From the sequence record PQ724394.1: 64,000 nt of DNA; one strand, 5' to 3'. This document shows positions 10,311 to 56,715 of this stretch, in pieces (the first letter of the stretch is position 1; every line of letters starts with the position of its first letter). The notes beneath the pieces are model-generated. The model was not told where the DNA came from, did not search any database, and saw nothing but the letters and a program-made list of their open reading frames with translations. This stretch comes from a phage. The position numbers and the translations under genes are program-made.

Positions 10311-11204
10311 TTAAAGGACCACGTCCTCATAACGTGGCATTTCGTACTCAGAATGAATATGGGCACCGAAATAAATGAATTCAGCCAGACCAGGATGAAA
10401 TACTAAACCCGGGTTTTCATGATAAATGATATGTGGCCTTGATTTCAGAATCTGATAATATTCAACCTTACTCGGTTTGAATTTAACAATCTCTACGTCA
10501 GGACGATAGTCTTCACGCTTAAATGAATCATTCGGGTCGGTGATATAAAGACGAGCACCTTCAGCGGCAGCTTGGTCTACAACTCTTTCGAATTGATAGC
10601 ACTTATCCGAAATACGGAATGGATGGAAAATACCATCAATTTTAATAGGCGCTAGACCTTCAGAGTAACGCTCAATTACTGCAGGATTAATTACCTTTTG
10701 GTCTACAAAAATCTTATCAGAGGATGCACCTCGTGACACCAGGACGTCTTTCTGGCATTGATTCAGGACTGTAGTATAAAGTGAACGTTCAACTGAAGCC
10801 ACATCAATATCAATGAACTCGTCGATATAATAACGAGGAACTTCAGGGTCCATTGTGATATTAAAGTTGAATTGTACGGTATGAGCACCATCATAACCGG
10901 TGATATCGGTTACCAGTCCTGAGCAATCATAGTATTCGATTAGTGAATCGACTACAAACTCATTTTCAGACCAGAAATGTTTACGGGTTTCATAAGCATT
11001 TTCTTTATACCAAAGTGGTACGAAATTCAGTTCTGGGAATAATTCAATGCATTCTTTGATATCGCTCGAATTTCTAGGATAAGCCAGATAATCACCTGGA
11101 CGAGCACGATTTAAATGGAGTTGAAAATTACCGTCCTTAAGGACGGCATATTCACCTGTTTCGTAACTACGCATACTGAAAATAGGAACGATAAACAAAC
11201 TCAT
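10311..11204 (-). CDS. hypothetical protein occupying the beta-glucosyltransferase position; candidate hmC sugar transferase
   Basis: 297 aa; no recognisable similarity to T4 beta-gt; first gene of a coupled cluster with the gene-42 homolog. Confidence 0.55.
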   Translation of the reverse strand: MSLFIVPIFSMRSYETGEYAVLKDGNFQLHLNRARPGDYLAYPRNSSDIKECIELFPELNFVPLWYKENAYETRKHFWSENEFVVDSLIEYYDCSGLVTDITGYDGAHTVQFNFNITMDPEVPRYYIDEFIDIDVASVERSLYTTVLNQCQKDVLVSRGASSDKIFVDQKVINPAVIERYSEGLAPIKIDGIFHPFRISDKCYQFERVVDQAAAEGARLYITDPNDSFKREDYRPDVEIVKFKPSKVEYYQILKSRPHIIYHENPGLVFHPGLAEFIYFGAHIHSEYEMPRYEDVVL

Positions 11205-11899
11205 TTCAGGAAACCTCGGACGTAGTCAAAATCACGTTCAAACACGTGTGCACTTACCATGGTGTGGGAATATGTACCTAAACCGACACCACACTGTTCA
11301 GCAATAAATGCCATCAGTTTACCCTGCAGATAGAAATCCAGCTGCATAACAACAGCACAGTTCTGTGAACGCATATGGGTATGTGCATACAAACGTCCGT
11401 CACGAATATAATACGTTACCGAATCGGTGCAAGGATATTCTAAGGATTCGTCAGAATCAAGGAGGGCTTGGTCTTGTTCTTGGAGAATCTGGAACACAAC
11501 TCTTCGCGAGTTAGCCTTTTCTTTAAGCTCTTTAAGTAGGGCTGGGAGTTGGGCCACAATTCGAGGTCCGTAGAAAGTGTTGAAGTTTGCAGGCAATACG
11601 TCACTTTTCGGCTTATCAATGAACTTAGCAACATTAGGGTATTCCTTAAATGCTTCGGCAGCGTCAGTACCACCAGAAATCATAAATTTCCAAAAGGATT
11701 CGGCATATTCATAACTAATACGATTGATACGTGGGTCGGTGAATTTATAGGTGCTTGCATCCAGTACTTCTACCGAAGCAGAACCAATTTCATAACAACG
11801 TCCGATACGAGAATCAACTGCAAACTGTGGAGCTTCCAGGATTTCTTCGTTCATTTGTTTAAATGCATTTTCAAAACTAACAGCGGTAATGTGTTTCAT
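11201..11899 (-). CDS. 42: dCMP hydroxymethylase (thymidylate-synthase superfamily), diverged
   Basis: 232 aa; TS-like fold motifs (catalytic Cys in YPCTDS, SRRVVF, Asp at the cytosine-specifying position); position of T4 gene 42. Confidence 0.75.
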   Translation of the reverse strand: MKHITAVSFENAFKQMNEEILEAPQFAVDSRIGRCYEIGSASVEVLDASTYKFTDPRINRISYEYAESFWKFMISGGTDAAEAFKEYPNVAKFIDKPKSDVLPANFNTFYGPRIVAQLPALLKELKEKANSRRVVFQILQEQDQALLDSDESLEYPCTDSVTYYIRDGRLYAHTHMRSQNCAVVMQLDFYLQGKLMAFIAEQCGVGLGTYSHTMVSAHVFERDFDYVRGFLK

Positions 11900-12432
11900 T
11901 TATTCACCTTATTTTCAATATATTCGTTCAGACGTTTTAATTCTACCATATCAACATTAAGCAAATTATTATGGCCGTCATGATTTAAGATTTTAAACAC
12001 GTTTTCAAAACATGTTTCGTATTGCCGGATAGTTAGGTTGAACTCATCTTTGGTTAATTTAATAAGGTCGTCTTCGAAGTCTTCGTCTAACGGGTTACGA
12101 GTTAAAATAACCTCGATAACGTTAAATTCGGATTTAAACCCTTTCCAATCTTCCAGTTCTACATAAGGGTCCATTTCACCACGAAGGAATCCTGAGTAAA
12201 CAATATTACTTGGATAACCACGGTCAAGGATATAAACGAAATTAGGGTCTAAAAACTTATACAGAGTTTCAACTAAAGCCTTATCGTTATCAGTTCCTAA
12301 TGAAATACACTTGCCATTAATCTTTTTAGGAAAATCAATAAGGCGGTATTTCTTATTGGATAACAGATTTTTAATTAAAGTGGACTTCCCGGAATTATCC
12401 GGGCCGTCTATAACAATGATTTTTGGATTCAT
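11896..12432 (-). CDS. P-loop kinase (dNMP/thymidylate-kinase-like)
   Basis: 178 aa; Walker A IVIDGPDNSGKST; stop/start overlap with flanking genes. Confidence 0.65.
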   Translation of the reverse strand: MNPKIIVIDGPDNSGKSTLIKNLLSNKKYRLIDFPKKINGKCISLGTDNDKALVETLYKFLDPNFVYILDRGYPSNIVYSGFLRGEMDPYVELEDWKGFKSEFNVIEVILTRNPLDEDFEDDLIKLTKDEFNLTIRQYETCFENVFKILNHDGHNNLLNVDMVELKRLNEYIENKVNK

Positions 12433-12827
12433 GGATGATAGGCCTTATAACTATCAAGAGTTCCTTCACGAACCATTTCTTTAAAGTGGTCAGGACGGAT
12501 TGCTCGGTCATCGATGATAAAAGTATAACTCGGCTTGTGTGTAAGCAAATTGTGATATTTCAATCCAATCTTTTCAAGGTTCTTAACCAATGCAGGAACT
12601 ACTTCAACCAAGATTCGACCTGGGCCACATGAAGTCATGCCACGGGCGGTGAACAATGTAATCTCGTACCCTTCATCATAAAGCTTATTAATCATGGACA
12701 CCATTTCGGTGTCCGGTTTAAAGTTCTCATAATCACGGTCATGGTTCCAAATCGTGATTGTGTTATCGATATCAAAACATAAATGCGGCTTATTTTCTAC
12801 TCGATGCGACATTAAATTTTCTTCCAT
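12429..12827 (-). CDS. HAD-superfamily phosphatase (small)
   Basis: 132 aa; motif I FDIDNTIT, motif II LFTAR, motif III/IV K...IIDD. Confidence 0.6.
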   Translation of the reverse strand: MEENLMSHRVENKPHLCFDIDNTITIWNHDRDYENFKPDTEMVSMINKLYDEGYEITLFTARGMTSCGPGRILVEVVPALVKNLEKIGLKYHNLLTHKPSYTFIIDDRAIRPDHFKEMVREGTLDSYKAYHP

Positions 12828-14515
12828 TGTTTGTGGAGTTCAGTAGAACCTGTAGGTTTATATTTTACACCAGTTTCCTGGTCAAGCAAAACCCACTTAT
12901 CAGGACAACGAGTAATAATTTGGGCCGTGATAGGGTCACGGACTTCATCGACAAATTCACCCGTAATAAGCTTACGCTTACGAGGATGCCGCTTCAGCAG
13001 CACACTCAGTTGGTACAAACCGTTATAATAAGCACCCAGAGCTTTCAGAGGGTTATTCTTAAAGTAACCTGCCAGCGCCATCCAAATAACAGCAATCCAG
13101 AGCTTGTGCTTAAATGTGCACATAGGGATATCGTCTAAAGGCATAACCTTTTCGATATCAACGAATACACGAGTTCCGTTACGAGTTAATCCACCCCATA
13201 GAGGGTCTGAGTTAAATTTATCATAGCCATCGATAGAATAAAGCACCTTAGCTTCATCATAAATCGCAGGGCCTTTAGAACTATTACCGAAATAACCGCG
13301 TGGGTCGATGATTTTAATATCACCTTCGTCCGACAGCATAATATTACTATAGTGCGGGTCACCATGAATAAGTTGGTACGGTTCTTTATGTTCAGACAGA
13401 ATTTCTAGTGCATGGCGGAGAAGTTTTTCAGGGTCGCCTACTTTGAAATCGTTAACATGGGTAATACCCTGTGGAGCAAAGCCTTCAATCAATCCAGCAA
13501 TAGAAGCATTACGAATAAGGACCTTGTCCAATACTTCTTTCTTAACATCGGAATACCATTGTTCATCGGAAGGATTATCGATAGTTCCACCGAATGAACG
13601 TAATGCACTAATGACCTTATAAACCATGAGGACTTTAGTTTCTTTGGACATAAACCGGTAGGCATCTGCCATGGTACGACCAAAGATACGTTCCATTTTA
13701 ATGAATTCGCCTGGAGAAAAGTCTACAATGCTAGGAACGAATTCAGAATCAATAGAATTATACCAATTGATTTCTTTAGATTGAATTTCTTTACCTAATT
13801 CGTTAGTTGGTACTTTAATAGCTAGATTCTCGGTGAATTCTAATTTATTAAATTCACGATTAATTTCAGATTCTTCATGGGCCTTAGCCAGTTTCAATTT
13901 GTCACCGACATCAACTACAAAGTCTAGTTTACGTTCGGTCAAATAGACCATTGAATCCAGGTTATCAGCAAGGTCTTCACCATAATTAGAACGGTCGAAA
14001 CCTGTCCAGTTAGCCACCTGATACAAACCAACTACACCGCCACCAGTACCAATTTCACGTAAGTACGGTTCTTCAAATGTAAAACGACAGTCGGTCCCAT
14101 AGGTATAACAGTAGTCGTTACCCCATTCAACTTTATGACCGATAGGAATGATGTCACACCAGTTAAACAAGACATTATGGCCAATGATATCTTCGGCAAT
14201 GCAATCGATAGCATGGGCCGAACCATTAGCAACATCAACGTTACGAATAGTGAATTTAGGCTTATCACCAGTAATCATGTTAATGGATTTAATATAGCCT
14301 TTAACGAGGTCGTTAAATTTGCTGTGAATAACCAGAATAATTTCATCCGATTGGTTACTATACAAATCATACAAATGCTTTAATACCGTATGTTGTTTGT
14401 AGTTAACCAATACCTTCGGGATTTCGTTAGTAATTGGATACAACCGTGAGCCAAGACCTGCGCCTAAAATAACAACCTTTTTCATTATCTGTTCCTCAAG
14501 TGAATGTAGGTACAT
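12812..14515 (-). CDS. bifunctional nucleotidyltransferase / protein-kinase-like (APH/choline-kinase fold) enzyme
   Basis: 567 aa; N-terminal ILGAGLGSRL nucleotidyltransferase signature; C-terminal HGDPHYSNIM...IIDPRG kinase motif. Confidence 0.75.
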   Translation of the reverse strand: MYLHSLEEQIMKKVVILGAGLGSRLYPITNEIPKVLVNYKQHTVLKHLYDLYSNQSDEIILVIHSKFNDLVKGYIKSINMITGDKPKFTIRNVDVANGSAHAIDCIAEDIIGHNVLFNWCDIIPIGHKVEWGNDYCYTYGTDCRFTFEEPYLREIGTGGGVVGLYQVANWTGFDRSNYGEDLADNLDSMVYLTERKLDFVVDVGDKLKLAKAHEESEINREFNKLEFTENLAIKVPTNELGKEIQSKEINWYNSIDSEFVPSIVDFSPGEFIKMERIFGRTMADAYRFMSKETKVLMVYKVISALRSFGGTIDNPSDEQWYSDVKKEVLDKVLIRNASIAGLIEGFAPQGITHVNDFKVGDPEKLLRHALEILSEHKEPYQLIHGDPHYSNIMLSDEGDIKIIDPRGYFGNSSKGPAIYDEAKVLYSIDGYDKFNSDPLWGGLTRNGTRVFVDIEKVMPLDDIPMCTFKHKLWIAVIWMALAGYFKNNPLKALGAYYNGLYQLSVLLKRHPRKRKLITGEFVDEVRDPITAQIITRCPDKWVLLDQETGVKYKPTGSTELHKQWKKI

Positions 14516-41032: not shown

Positions 41033-41605
41033 TCAACTCGTTATTTCTATCCAGTGCTTCCTGCACAATGACACGTAAGAATCGTTGCCACCTATAGAAA
41101 CTTGGGCTCCGTCCTTAATTGCGACACCATCTTGGACCCTAGCAGTCATAGTAGCTTTACGGCCGCAATGGCACACACCTTTGTACTCAACGAGTTTATC
41201 TGCCGTAGCGAGTAATTCGGCAGAACCAGGAAACAGTTTACCCTGAAAATCAGTTCTTAGCCCATAACACATAACCGGAACGTTATAATTGTCTACTATC
41301 TTTGCCAGTTGTTTTATCTGTGTAGGTTCTAAGAACTGTGCTTCATCCACAAACACACAGTGGATATCTTTTTGAGATTCAGCCCAACGATAGAACTCGT
41401 ATAGGTCCATATCTGGAGTCACTGCATTAGCCTCTTGACTAATCCCTATACGAGACGAAATGGTATGGCTTGATTCTCTATTGTCTATCGCAGGCTTTAA
41501 AAGGAGCACGCCCATACCACGTTCTTTATAATTATGGGCGGCCGTTAGCAATGAAGCGGTTTTACCGGAGTTCATTGCCGCGTAGTGAAAATAAAGTTGA
41601 GCCAT
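41033..41605 (-). CDS. tk: thymidine kinase
   Basis: 190 aa; P-loop NSGKTASLL; C-terminal CxCG zinc motif. Confidence 0.9.
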   Translation of the reverse strand: MAQLYFHYAAMNSGKTASLLTAAHNYKERGMGVLLLKPAIDNRESSHTISSRIGISQEANAVTPDMDLYEFYRWAESQKDIHCVFVDEAQFLEPTQIKQLAKIVDNYNVPVMCYGLRTDFQGKLFPGSAELLATADKLVEYKGVCHCGRKATMTARVQDGVAIKDGAQVSIGGNDSYVSLCRKHWIEITS

Positions 41606-41991: not shown

Positions 41992-42185
41992 AATTCAATT
42001 CCGTCCATAGCCAAAATTCTTTTTCGTTGGGCCTTGAGAGCTGTTTGGGTTTTGTCATAATCTTCTTGACTACCGCTAGGCTGTAAAGCCGCTACTTTTT
42101 TGGCCAAGTGAATAAGCTTATCCAAGTTTTCAACAATACGTTCTTGTTCTTCATTCAGGCTCATAACCATTGCACCTTTAAGCAA
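41988..42185 (-). CDS. hypothetical protein (65 aa)
   Basis: ORF. Confidence 0.35.
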   Translation of the reverse strand: MLKGAMVMSLNEEQERIVENLDKLIHLAKKVAALQPSGSQEDYDKTQTALKAQRKRILAMDGIEL

Positions 42186-42373
42186 TATTCTTCTACATGC
42201 TGTTTACGTTTATTTTTATCTATAAAAGTATATTCAACATATTCACCGATATACCATTTATCCGTGTTGTGTTGGCTTTTTATAGGGCATTTAGTTACTC
42301 GGGTTTCGGTCCAGCGCCGAATAATTTCGGCTTTGTTTTTAGGGTCAAACGGATGTGGGTAGTGTGCTTTCAT
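42161..42373 (-). CDS. hypothetical protein (70 aa)
   Basis: ORF. Confidence 0.35.
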   Translation of the reverse strand: MKAHYPHPFDPKNKAEIIRRWTETRVTKCPIKSQHNTDKWYIGEYVEYTFIDKNKRKQHVEEYCLKVQWL

Positions 42374-42824
42374 AATCCACCACTATTAAATCAATATCAG
42401 GGGTAAACATGTCGATTAATTTAGAAACCTTGTCCCAATCACCGCCAGCAATACCACAACCAATGCGAGGAATATAAATTCTTGGTTTAAACAAAAGAGT
42501 TTCTGCTTGTAGATTTAATTCTATCATACAGTTTACTAAAGCACCGTAATCAAGATTAGGGCCTGGTTCGTATTGTGTATACAAGTTATAGCACATACCA
42601 AACCCTGCAGGCTTATGTTTAAAAACAATAGACATGTCGCCTAATTTATCACGAGAACCGTATTCAGTAGTGGTCTTATCAATTTCTAATATTTTAGGAT
42701 AGGCTCTTGCTAATTGACCAGCAACACCTGAACCCATAGTATGAAAACAGTTGCACCCATGTGCAATAATATTACCTTGGAGAAACAGGGCGACGATATC
42801 GCCCTTAATATAATCAATAATCAT
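42345..42824 (-). CDS. macro-domain protein (ADP-ribose binding/hydrolase family)
   Basis: 159 aa; macro motifs HGCNCF.TMGSGVAGQL and PRIGCGIAGG. Confidence 0.7.
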   Translation of the reverse strand: MIIDYIKGDIVALFLQGNIIAHGCNCFHTMGSGVAGQLARAYPKILEIDKTTTEYGSRDKLGDMSIVFKHKPAGFGMCYNLYTQYEPGPNLDYGALVNCMIELNLQAETLLFKPRIYIPRIGCGIAGGDWDKVSKLIDMFTPDIDLIVVDYESTLPTSV

Positions 42825-43177
42825 TTAGAGTTTAGCCCTCGGTTGTAAGAGTCAACGAGTCTGTCTACCATAGACGCGCACATTTCTTTGTACTTTTTAT
42901 CAGATGGAACACATTCAGTAACGTTTAGACGTTGCTCGTATCTTTTAGAAAGAGTTTTCTCTTTCATTCGGCGATGCTCGACGTCGTTCTGCCCATCTTT
43001 AAAAGCAGCTGTTATTTTTGAACTGAATTCAATAACACATTCAGTATTACTCGGATGACAATAATCTTTTGCTGTACGGGTGGCATACTCGACAATTGAA
43101 TTATTTGTATCATCAACCTGTGATGCTAATACTCCCGGAGCAATCAACATAAGCGCTATAGTCATCTGTTTAATCAT
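42821..43177 (-). CDS. secreted hypothetical protein (118 aa)
   Basis: N-terminal signal peptide. Confidence 0.45.
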   Translation of the reverse strand: MIKQMTIALMLIAPGVLASQVDDTNNSIVEYATRTAKDYCHPSNTECVIEFSSKITAAFKDGQNDVEHRRMKEKTLSKRYEQRLNVTECVPSDKKYKEMCASMVDRLVDSYNRGLNSK

Positions 43178-43717
43178 TTAATATACCGCCTCAAACATCT
43201 TTTTAGATTTTAGGTAATTGGCCTTTTCTAGAACTTCGGAAGCATATTTACTGCCTGCTTTGACATTCCAGCCCGCATTATAAGAAGCAATCGCTTTTCT
43301 CAGGTCACCTTTGTGAACATTAATCCAATAAGACAGCTCAATGTAGGCCCAAGAGGCACTGTTCTGTCGTTTTTGGACCATACGAATTATTTCTTTGTCT
43401 GACATCTTCCAACCTACCTGTTGAACACGACTTCTTAACGTAGGCAAGTAATTTTGGAACATGCCATAAGCATGGTGCTTATCTTTATTTAAACCTTGAT
43501 TAATTCCAGCAGATGATTCCTGCCATAATAATCCGGCCATTATATATCCTAATCCTTTTTGATTAGGGTTTTCTTTGAACTTTCCCGACTTTTGGTATTG
43601 TTCACCGAAAGCATACGCATAATGTAAATTATCGAGTTGTTCATTACTGAAAGTAGGCTCTACGCTATAGGCAGACATACTAACTGTCAATAGTAAAGTG
43701 GCTAATACTTTTTTCAT
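43178..43717 (-). CDS. secreted lytic-transglycosylase-like protein (SLT domain)
   Basis: Signal peptide; LWQESSAG and SYNAGW motifs. Confidence 0.55.
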   Translation of the reverse strand: MKKVLATLLLTVSMSAYSVEPTFSNEQLDNLHYAYAFGEQYQKSGKFKENPNQKGLGYIMAGLLWQESSAGINQGLNKDKHHAYGMFQNYLPTLRSRVQQVGWKMSDKEIIRMVQKRQNSASWAYIELSYWINVHKGDLRKAIASYNAGWNVKAGSKYASEVLEKANYLKSKKMFEAVY

Positions 43718-43729
43718 GAGACCTCATTA

Positions 43730-44188
43730 TTAAAGATAGATTACTTTCGTGCTGGTTTTACCTTCTAAACGTTTAGAGTTAACAAATGCCATACGACATT
43801 TTAATGAATATCCTTTATCAGGATGTTTACGATCTACGGTCATACCCAACCATAAGGTTTTATCGGTAATCTCGAGACGCAGTGGACGATACACCTTACC
43901 TGGAATAATTTCAGATTCTACGTCAGGAAGAGGCTCCTGGATTAAAAATTCATGGATTTCTTTAACATGATTGTGGAGCTTCTTGAACAAAGAGAAAACA
44001 TATTTTTCGTCAATTTCACGTTGGATAGCACGGTCCAACAAGTGATTAGAGTACTTAATAAAGAAAGCTGGGACCCCGCTCTTAATGGCGGCTTTTTTGA
44101 TGGACGCGTTAAGTTCACGAAATTCGGTTTCGAACTGACGACGTAATTTGTTGCGGCGGATGAATACTTCTGAATTAATTTCTGACAT
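43730..44188 (-). CDS. regB: RegB endoribonuclease
   Basis: 152 aa from MSEINSEVFIRRNKLRR; strong similarity to T4 RegB; the longer frame runs into the promoter cassette. Confidence 0.85.
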   Translation of the reverse strand: MSEINSEVFIRRNKLRRQFETEFRELNASIKKAAIKSGVPAFFIKYSNHLLDRAIQREIDEKYVFSLFKKLHNHVKEIHEFLIQEPLPDVESEIIPGKVYRPLRLEITDKTLWLGMTVDRKHPDKGYSLKCRMAFVNSKRLEGKTSTKVIYL

Positions 44189-44215
44189 TTTGTAATCTCC
44201 TGTAGTTGATAGGTC

Positions 44216-44245
44216 TATAGTACCACGTCTACAGGAGATGTAAAC
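44216..44245 (-). promoter_or_regulatory. early promoter cassette
   Basis: Full conserved motif copy upstream of regB. Confidence 0.65.
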
Positions 44246-44250
44246 TGCTT

Positions 44251-44529
44251 TTAGTATTTTTCCTCGGGTTGGAAAACGGAACGACAGGCCCACATGGATG
44301 CTTCTTTCAAGCGTTCGATTGCCGTGCGAATCTGGGCGAGACGTTCATGAGTGAGGTCGAATTCTTCACCACTCATTTTATCAACACCTGAGCATGTAAA
44401 GGCTTCAACGTATTCTTCTTCTAGTGCTTTAAAGATTAAGCCTAATCGAACTTCAGCATCTTTAATGGCATTCACTTTACTGATTTTATCGTCGGTATGT
44501 GGCTTGTAACCCTTGATATCTTCAATCAT
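44251..44529 (-). CDS. hypothetical protein (92 aa)
   Basis: ORF. Confidence 0.4.
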   Translation of the reverse strand: MIEDIKGYKPHTDDKISKVNAIKDAEVRLGLIFKALEEEYVEAFTCSGVDKMSGEEFDLTHERLAQIRTAIERLKEASMWACRSVFQPEEKY

Positions 44530-56189: not shown

Positions 56190-56480
56190 TCGGGGTTCCA
56201 CCTGCTAGGCAAGTGTTTGTACGAAACGCCGGGATTCGAACCCGGTTATTAAGCAGTTGACGCTACTCAATATTTTTTTAAAAGGCCATATCTCGACCAT
56301 ATCCGAACGTTCCGTCAAAAACGCTACTCGGCTTACGGCAAAGATATTTCCTCGAATCGATAATTCGATGCGCCGTTTCAGCTGTGATAGTAAAGAACCA
56401 GAACACAGTAAAACTGTGGGAGGAACTATACTCCAGGGAACTTCAGTCCGACGACTTACCGGTAGCGACCCGGTTTCTTG
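56190..56480 (-). ncRNA. possible small stable RNA(s) with tRNA-like T-arm, adjacent to tRNA cluster
   Basis: CCGGG-TTCGAAT-CCCGG T-arm-like element at 56229-56245 without foldable anticodon or D arms; several palindromes; analogous position to T4 stable RNAs C and D. Confidence 0.3.
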
Positions 56481-56482
56481 TT

Positions 56483-56558
56483 TGGTCGAGACAGTAGGGA
56501 TCGAACCTACGACCCAGGACTTAGAAGGTCCTTGCTCTTCCTTCTGAGCTATGCCTCG
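56483..56558 (-). tRNA. tRNA-Arg (anticodon TCT)
   Basis: Hand-folded cloverleaf: 7-bp acceptor stem, D arm GCTC/GAGC, anticodon loop CTTCTAA, T arm GTAGG-TTCGATC-CCTAC, CCA encoded. Confidence 0.8.
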
Positions 56559-56562
56559 TATT

Positions 56563-56637
56563 TGGCGGACATGCATGGATTCGAACCATGGACCAATTGA
56601 TTAACAGTCAACTGCTCTACCGCTGAGCTACACATCC
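56563..56637 (-). tRNA. tRNA-Asn (anticodon GTT)
   Basis: Hand-folded cloverleaf: acceptor stem with two G-U pairs, D arm GCTC/GAGC, anticodon loop CTGTTAA, T arm CATGG-TTCGAAT-CCATG, CCA encoded. Confidence 0.75.
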
Positions 56638-56641
56638 GAAT

Positions 56642-56715
56642 TGGTGGCCCTGGGTGGAATCGAACCACCATCCAGCGATTATGAGTCGCTCGCTTGACCG
56701 TCCAGCTACAGGGCC
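56642..56715 (-). tRNA. tRNA-Met or Ile-lysidine (anticodon CAT)
   Basis: Hand-folded cloverleaf: perfect 7-bp acceptor stem, anticodon loop CTCATAA, T arm GGTGG-TTCGATT-CCACC, CCA encoded. Confidence 0.75.

Follow-up and report, generated by a model that had tools for sequence, protein, structure and literature searches.

A macrodomain encoded by a phage could serve several ends, and the question raised by the locus described here is which of them applies. The DNA analysed, referred to below as the window, is a 64,000-nucleotide stretch of a phage genome (PQ724394.1). Between tk and regB it encodes a small protein, Tk.4, that an earlier sequence-only reading had taken for a macro-domain protein, suggesting that it might counter host defence based on ADP-ribosylation or regulate the phage's own ADP-ribosyltransferases. 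DarTG systems halt phages through ADP-ribosylation of DNA, and phage erasers of the mark set host range on strains carrying such systems. AdfM, an anti-DarT factor, is a macrodomain. None of this is new in outline: the gene and its macro domain were annotated long ago, and what the T4 orthologue does has been published as a preprint. Beyond the cited literature the present analysis would add modestly, in three respects: the lysine-free, SCO6735-like active site of T4-type AdfM, the distinctness of its lineage from PhiKZ AdfM, and the standing of tk.4 as a recombination hot spot.

tk.4 lies in a tightly packed gene cluster

The open reading frame proposed earlier is present, starting with ATG and encoding 159 aa; the ORF list and the sequence place it on the minus strand, which had been left unstated. 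Both macro signatures occur as quoted, AHGCNCFHTMGSGVAGQL at residues 21-38 and PRIGCGIAGGDW at residues 119-130. The locus comprises the following features:

41033-41605: tk (PF00265)
42161-42373: tk.3 (DUF7202)
42345-42373, minus strand: 29-nt overlap between the 3' end of tk.4 and the start of tk.3 (coordinates and sequence)
42345..42824, minus strand: tk.4 (adfM) coding sequence, encoding a 159-aa predicted stand-alone macrodomain of the ALC1-like class (ORF, Pfam, PHROG, AlphaFold and Foldseek)
42821..42824, minus strand: ATGA overlap between the vs stop and the tk.4 start (coordinates and sequence)
42821-43177: vs, valyl-tRNA-synthetase modifier (PHROG 1256, E=4e-34)
43178-43717: vs.1, with a sub-threshold Pfam SLT match (E=0.015, 15.3 bits against a cut-off of 21.3)
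43730-44293: regB (PF10715)

As the sequence-only reading had it, tk and regB flank tk.4. On one strand regB, vs.1, vs, tk.4 and tk.3 follow one another closely, and from this packing tk.4 is probably co-transcribed with the other four. A generic promoter and terminator scan of 40.9-45.2 kb performed no better than on shuffled sequence (13 promoter-like sites against 12.2 expected), and an Rfam scan of the whole window returned three tRNAs only, all distant from the locus. The adjoining "secreted protein" noted earlier is Vs, whose N-terminus is indeed signal-like. What had been called a "lytic-transglycosylase-like gene" is vs.1; a weak SLT resemblance exists, but it stays below the Pfam threshold. 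Searches of PDB sequences returned no matches for vs.1 or vs.

The tk.4 protein is modelled as a stand-alone macrodomain

The protein matched positions 2-117 of the 118-position Pfam Macro profile (PF01661) with E=1.7e-7; its 31.6 bits exceed the gathering cut-off of 22 and, taken with the PHROG and homologue matches given below, show the resemblance to be no accident. An AlphaFold2 model was built, and conservation assessed, from an alignment of 55 homologues that left out the T4 Tk.4 sequence and reached down to about 39% identity to the window protein. The model is confident (pLDDT 93.9, pTM 0.88). Foldseek returned 165 PDB matches at E<=1e-3, and the best 50 of the 165 were all macrodomains or serine hydrolases designed on one. 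In order, the top matches were TARG1 (E about 1e-9, TM 0.71-0.82), Poa1p (E 6.8e-9, TM 0.75), BT1257, and DarG of T. aquaticus and M. tuberculosis (5M31 and 5M3I; E 8e-8 to 2e-7, TM about 0.72), spanning E values of 1e-9 to 2e-7 and TM scores of 0.7-0.8. The macro domain claimed earlier is thus borne out by the confident model and these structural matches, and the model assigns the protein to the stand-alone macrodomains of the ALC1-like class.

The same relatives were recovered from sequence. A single-sequence search of the PDB gave BT1257 (1.5e-10), Poa1p (1e-9), SCO6735 (5.5e-8), M. tuberculosis DarG (4e-5) and human TARG1 (9e-3). A profile search against PDB sequences matched BT1257 (1.8e-18), TARG1 (1.8e-16), Poa1p (1.3e-15), SCO6735 (5.8e-15) and M. 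tuberculosis DarG (2.7e-11). DarG was also the sole match in the PADLOC defence library (5e-7) and the top match in NCBIfam (NF048014, E=2e-6), the latter with 27.2 bits against a cut-off of 250. Both DarG models aligned to the 159-aa protein through their macro half only (positions 1-142 of 338 in NCBIfam and 2-144 of 329 in PADLOC).

tk.4 is orthologous to tk.4 of phage T4

A 1.9-kb neighbourhood of tk.4 shares 97.5% identity with Escherichia phage JS98 (Dhakavirus, Straboviridae); judged by this similarity, the window is a JS98-like Dhakavirus. The JS98 gene is annotated as "phosphatase; contains A1pp phosphatase motif", and T4 tk.4 carries the identical annotation. In T4 the genes are ordered tk.3, tk.4, vs, vs.1 and regB; the order tk.3, tk.4, vs is common to the window, T4, JS98, IME08 and Shfl2. 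Aligned with T4 Tk.4 (NP_049723), the window protein showed 56% identity and 73% positives (E=1e-68), ungapped over residues 1-155. The T4 protein is slightly shorter (155 against 159 aa) and differs at 44% of residues. Both proteins contain HGCNCFHTMGSGVAGQL and the NLYTQ motif, whereas T4 Tk.4 has PRIGAGIGKGNW at the place of PRIGCGIAGGDW, and the window allele is of the JS98/Shfl2 type. Similarity and position together identify tk.4 as the orthologue of T4 tk.4 (AdfM). Score, fold, similarity and synteny place the protein in Pfam Macro as well as in the Tk.4/AdfM orthologous group.

The family is widespread. The protein matched PHROG 335 ("phosphatase") with E=3.3e-71, and homologues numbered 795 in the protein database and were found in 2769 of 50,697 phage records. 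The phages concerned are Straboviridae and many others that differ in genome size and host, some with very large genomes, and their host genera include Escherichia, Salmonella, Klebsiella, Pseudomonas, Vibrio, Acinetobacter and Aeromonas.

The predicted active site is of the glutamine type

Three segments make up the predicted ADP-ribose-binding and catalytic site:

42711..42761, minus strand: loop-1 motif H22-G-C-N25-C-F-H-T-M-G-S-G33-V-A35-G-Q-L, putative distal-ribose/phosphate-binding loop (conservation and comparison with SCO6735)
42573..42587, minus strand: N80-L-Y82-T83-Q84 motif (conservation and profile alignment)
42435..42470, minus strand: putative phosphate-binding loop P119-R-I-G122-C-G124-I-A126-G-G-D-W130 (conservation and alignment)

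Residues H22, G23, N25, C26, G33, A35, N80, Y82, Q84, G88, P119, G122, G124 and W130 are invariant in the 55 homologues. In profile alignments, Q84 falls opposite the catalytic Lys84 of TARG1 ("LITK") and a Gln of BT1257 ("NMIGQ"), and it occupies the position of the DarG catalytic Lys80. A126 aligns with the catalytic Asp125 of TARG1 ("GCGLDR", within the aligned segment PRIGCGLDRLQW). TARG1-type chemistry was ruled out, since the Lys84/Asp125 dyad is replaced by Q84/A126. The phosphate loop is nearly identical to LPRIGCGLAGGTW of SCO6735 and PRIGCGLAGGKW of BT1257, and a query with the C-terminal half aligned to SCO6735 over the phosphate loop only. We infer that H22, N25, Q84 and G124 correspond to His24, Asn27, Gln85 and Gly128 of SCO6735, the pairing of Q84 with Gln85 being drawn through BT1257 and TARG1. 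Read in this way, the tk.4 protein bears the defining residues of the SCO6735 (Gln) type, namely Gln in place of the catalytic Lys and the conserved Asn. The segment following Q84, YEPGPNLDY, has no lysine. SCO6735 has a longer "mobile loop" for DNA binding, with Lys89 and Lys94, to which this segment may or may not be equivalent.

In SCO6735, a protein of Streptomyces coelicolor, Gln85 stands in place of the lysine; the Q85A mutant is inactive, N27S is nearly inactive, and H24Y is inactive through disruption of the structure (PMC9411070). The enzyme efficiently strips thymidine-linked ADP-ribose from DNA and rescues E. coli from DarT toxicity (PMC9411070). Because the Lys and Asp of TARG1/DarG are both replaced in the tk.4 protein (Q84 and A126), the case for catalysis rests on the analogy with SCO6735. 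The sequence-only reading had held that missing catalytic-site residues would leave the protein with a structural role at most. The lysine of TARG1/DarG and the aspartate of TARG1 are indeed missing, but in their place stands a site of the Gln type, with which SCO6735 is able to catalyse.

The tk.4 protein is predicted to remove ADP-ribose from phage DNA

The functional evidence comes from T4. According to a 2025 preprint (bioRxiv 10.1101/2025.11.20.689424), tk.4 was the single significant hit when a T4 transposon library was grown on a DarTG2 host (HIDEN-SEQ), and a clean T4 tk.4 knock-out was sensitised to DarTG2. This evidence is genetic; the authors named the gene adfM, and enzymatic removal of ADP-ribose from DNA is a proposal of theirs. 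T-even phages also encode AdfN, a NADAR enzyme that acts against DarTG1 (PMC11825919). The earlier suggestion that the protein counters host DarT-type defence is supported by its orthology to T4 tk.4 in the same slot and by the DarTG2 sensitivity described in the preprint. The support is specific to DarT2-type thymidine ADP-ribosylation of DNA, because T4 tk.4 is needed on DarTG2 hosts.

We therefore favour, with a probability of roughly 0.7, that the tk.4 protein is a stand-alone macrodomain hydrolase of the Gln type, which frees thymidines in the single-stranded DNA of the phage from the ADP-ribose that DarT2 attaches. We infer that the T4 phenotype and the SCO6735 chemistry carry over to the 56%-identical allele of the window, action by catalysis included. 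The mechanism would run as follows. tk.4 would be expressed together with regB, vs.1, vs and tk.3. On a DarTG2-carrying host, the DarT2 toxin would place ADP-ribose on thymidines of single-stranded phage DNA and thereby block replication. Two glycine-rich loops of the tk.4 protein, HGCNCFHTMGSGVAG and PRIGCGIAGG, would grip the ADP-ribose; in place of the missing lysine nucleophile of TARG1/DarG, Gln84, held by Asn25, would orient the distal ribose and a water network. Cleavage of the N-glycosidic bond to thymine would restore normal DNA and allow growth on such hosts. If so, the presence of an AdfM orthologue in JS98-like, therapeutic-type coliphages would help to predict resistance to DarTG2.

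Other activities of the macro fold have to be weighed against DNA repair. The protein could be a small-molecule hydrolase, a Poa1p-like ADP-ribose-1''-phosphate phosphatase or an O-acetyl-ADP-ribose deacetylase, that clears NAD-derived by-products, for example of Tpt1/KptA-type RNA 2'-phosphotransfer or sirtuin reactions, and takes no part in DNA repair. Sequence scores do not separate DNA-directed from Poa1p-like roles, as Poa1p scores as high as SCO6735 and is among the top sequence and structure matches (1e-9, 1.3e-15 and, in Foldseek, 6.8e-9 with TM 0.75). The JS98 and T4 records carry the A1pp phosphatase annotation. By our own reading of mutant entry titles (H23A and S30A) and the alignment, with a three-residue tag offset assumed, H22 and T29 would sit at Poa1p His23 and Ser30. 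Such activity in vitro is also common among macrodomains (PMC8883491). On its own, however, it would hardly account for conservation in more than 2700 phage genomes. No Tpt1/KptA-like gene adjoins tk.4, and SCO6735, a relative of the Gln type, efficiently de-ADP-ribosylates DNA (PMC9411070). Fitness loss on DarTG2 hosts is the sole recorded phenotype of the T4 orthologue (bioRxiv 10.1101/2025.11.20.689424), and a Poa1p-like activity leaves it unexplained; a small-molecule role is unlikely. Alternatively, the protein could neutralise DarT2 mainly by binding the toxin, as an antitoxin mimic on a macro-fold scaffold, instead of hydrolysing the adduct. The loss of the catalytic Lys and Asp of TARG1/DarG fits such a role, and the catalytically dead SCO6735 variant Q85A is still an inhibitor of DarT in vitro, a stronger one than DarG K80A or TARG1 K84A (PMC9411070). 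The patch at residues 43-80, exchanged between alleles as described below, is what a surface coevolving with a toxin might look like. Against this, every position for ADP-ribose binding and SCO6735-type catalysis (H22, N25, G33, Q84, G122 and G124) is invariant in 55 diverse homologues, a pattern that points to catalysis as what selection maintains. Moreover, the C-terminal DarT-binding domain of DarG is missing, only the first 145 or so of the 329-338 model positions being matched, and the remotely related PhiKZ AdfM works enzymatically (PMC13309987). Toxin binding as the principal mode of action accordingly has long odds.

The two remaining possibilities lie outside DNA. The tk.4 protein might reverse ADP-ribosylation of protein or RNA, tuning the phage's Alt, ModA and ModB marks or undoing other host defences such as RNA-targeting toxins. 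A ModA-like ADP-ribosyltransferase is encoded in the window at 574-1143 (PHROG 832, E=1.4e-37). The residue modified by the T4 Alt and Mod enzymes is, however, arginine. Arginine-linked ADP-ribose is reversed by ARH1-type hydrolases, while acidic residues are the targets of TARG1 and MacroD (PMC8883491), so regulation of the phage's own transferases finds no support. With 41 kb between them, tk.4 and the modA-like gene are also unlinked, and the available part of the T4 study reports no tk.4 depletion outside the DarTG2 condition (bioRxiv 10.1101/2025.11.20.689424). On the other side, SCO6735 and TARG1 also accept protein substrates (PMC9411070), and the AdfN authors speculate that factors of this kind counter other defences that ADP-ribosylate DNA or RNA (PMC11825919); even so, we consider a protein or RNA target very unlikely. 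Least probable of all, to the point of being barely credible, is that the protein sequesters or degrades ADP-ribose-derived immune signals such as the Thoeris signals gcADPR and His-ADPR. The general capacity of macrodomains for ADP-ribose derivatives speaks for it and nothing further does. A hydrolase-type active site is kept across the family, the PADLOC defence library gave DarG as the sole match with no anti-Thoeris proteins, and, among the conditions in the available part of the preprint, tk.4 was a hit for DarTG2 only (bioRxiv 10.1101/2025.11.20.689424). The Thoeris link proposed earlier thus found no supporting evidence.

Comparison with known macrodomain proteins

Close counterparts of the tk.4 protein are SCO6735 of Streptomyces coelicolor (5E3B) and BT1257 of Bacteroides (2AFC/2FG1), which are likewise stand-alone proteins of about 150-160 aa with Gln at the catalytic Lys position. 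Their His, Asn and Gly positions and their phosphate loops match those of the tk.4 protein. No PDB sequence matches better than BT1257 (1.8e-18), which shows about 26% identity in the Foldseek alignment. In SCO6735, Val25 occupies the place of G23, but its role is exerted through the backbone. Both are cellular proteins with a proposed role in genome protection, in contrast to the viral counter-defence proposed here. TARG1/OARD1 and yeast Poa1p, the top structural matches, have overall ADP-ribose-binding loops like those of the tk.4 protein. TARG1 differs by its Lys84/Asp125 dyad (Q84/A126 in the tk.4 protein), and Poa1p is a small-molecule phosphatase that clears by-products of tRNA splicing, a context with no counterpart at tk.4.

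DarG (DarG2), the antitoxin of DarTG2 toxin-antitoxin systems, shares with the tk.4 protein its fold, its class and the presumed substrate, DarT2-modified thymidine, but uses a catalytic lysine (Lys80 in Thermus aquaticus) where the tk.4 protein has Q84. Membership in DarG was ruled out: the protein has no such Lys and no DarT-binding domain, and its gene has tk.3 and vs as neighbours instead of a DarT gene. An origin from an operon-derived antitoxin was also considered; the one bacterial homologue checked, P0083 of Pelagimonas, is a stand-alone gene in a housekeeping context with no DarT neighbour, but as a single example it is not conclusive.

De-ADP-ribosylation of DarT2-modified DNA has been shown biochemically for the AdfM of PhiKZ, gp104 (Cell Rep 2026, PMC13309987). 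Gp104 is a phage stand-alone macrodomain that counters DarTG2, as is proposed for the tk.4 protein, and it is imported into the phage nucleus (PMC13309987). When the published PhiKZ sequence was translated and compared, the two proteins showed 21% identity (BLASTP E=4e-4, hhalign probability 95%). Gp104 keeps the DarG-type lysine, with "PTK" opposite "YTQ" of tk.4. The 21% identity and the PhiKZ lysine suggest that PhiKZ AdfM and T4-type AdfM are different lineages of the same class under one name.

tk.4 alleles are mosaic

The genes of the cluster were compared with those of IME08, a Dhakavirus and so of the same genus, and Shfl2, a Tequatrovirus; nucleotide identity was followed in 60-nt windows. 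Protein identities to the window were:

tk: IME08 98%, Shfl2 69%
tk.3: IME08 99%, Shfl2 76%
tk.4: IME08 78%, Shfl2 96%
vs: IME08 99%, Shfl2 45%
vs.1: IME08 99%, Shfl2 67%

Nucleotide identity to Shfl2 is 40-65% in vs but climbs to 81-96% within tk.4. JS98 is 100% identical to the window in vs, but only 76-95% in tk.4, where protein identity is nevertheless 97%. Within tk.4, one segment stands apart:

42583..42697, minus strand: apparently replaceable internal patch, about residues 43-80 (IME08 nucleotide identity 40-48%, against 81-93% in flanking windows)

These contrasts with IME08, Shfl2 and JS98 indicate that the alleles of tk.4 are old, that purifying selection acts on the protein they encode and that recombination shuffles them, both inside a genus and from one genus to another (Dhakavirus and Tequatrovirus), and the drop inside the gene indicates that the internal patch has been replaced outright. 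In the secondary structure of the AlphaFold model, the patch takes in the helix 44-52 region and a loop, and then the first strands of a hairpin whose end is at Q84. Apart from K60-L61-G62, no other part of the family alignment is so poorly conserved.

To link this mosaicism to an arms race with DarT2 variants is speculative. A fuller version of the idea, which we regard as rather doubtful, is that T4-type AdfM is not a co-opted DarG but a separate, lysine-independent Gln-type lineage resembling SCO6735 and BT1257, in which residues 43-80 form a swapped specificity surface racing DarT2 variants. Were this true, the surface might contact the toxin itself or select differing DNA or protein substrates, and different tk.4 alleles would protect against different ADP-ribosylating defences.

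tk.4 as a recombination mosaic

Comparison across the segment covering tk.3, tk.4, and vs (window 42161-43177) shows the macrodomain gene tk.4 to be a recombination mosaic. Against IME08, a phage of the same genus, the tk.4 protein is 78% identical and the products of the flanking genes are 98-99% identical. Against the Tequatrovirus Shfl2, the identity of the tk.4 protein is 96% and that of the flanking genes 45-76%. Within tk.4, nucleotide identity to IME08 falls to 40-48% in a patch at window 42583-42697.

A homologue of the tk.4 protein (41% identity) is encoded on a piece of the Pelagimonas phthalicica chromosome (L006, 5001-5459). It is a stand-alone gene with neighbours of housekeeping type and no adjoining DarT toxin gene.

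The phage carries an ADP-ribosyltransferase of its own

Since the window contains a ModA-like gene, located 41 kb from tk.4, the phage has its own ADP-ribosyltransferase:
574-1143, (-) strand: ModA-like ADP-ribosyltransferase, 189 aa (PHROG 832, 'RNA polymerase ADP-ribosylase', E=1.4e-37)

Genes adjoining tk.4

Vs, the valyl-tRNA-synthetase modifier (42821-43177, (-) strand), begins with a hydrophobic, signal-peptide-like segment, MIKQMTIALMLIAPGVLASQ, which is odd in view of its reputed role as a modifier of a cytoplasmic synthetase. The N-terminus of the vs.1 product (43178-43717, (-) strand) is likewise signal-peptide-like, and its SLT match is sub-threshold only. A sequence search of the PDB with Vs and the vs.1 product found a relative of neither.

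Mechanical ORF calling placed the start of regB at a GTG codon:
43730-44293, (-) strand: regB, 187 aa

The Pfam RegB domain starts at residue 39 of this ORF, and the JS98 annotation gives a 152-aa protein that starts at an internal ATG at about window 44188. The 187-aa version is probably an ORF-calling artefact.

RB69-like gene block and tRNA genes

A block of genes resembling RB69 orf047c-052c occupies window 10311-14515 on the (-) strand and is not known from the T4 map. Besides a 567-aa protein of unknown function, it encodes:
11201-11899, (-) strand: thymidylate-synthase-like protein (PHROG 160)

JS98 annotations for neighbours in this region read 'thymidylate kinase' and 'phosphoheptose isomerase'. 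A link is possible between this region and arabinosyl-hydroxymethylcytosine, the DNA modification found in RB69-like phages.

ARAGORN alone reported an odd 97-nt 'tRNA-Phe (aaa)' at window 56219-56315, a call that the Rfam scan did not support. Rfam and ARAGORN agree on three tRNA genes:
56219-56715, (-) strand: tRNA-Arg (TCT), tRNA-Asn (GTT), and tRNA-Met (CAT)
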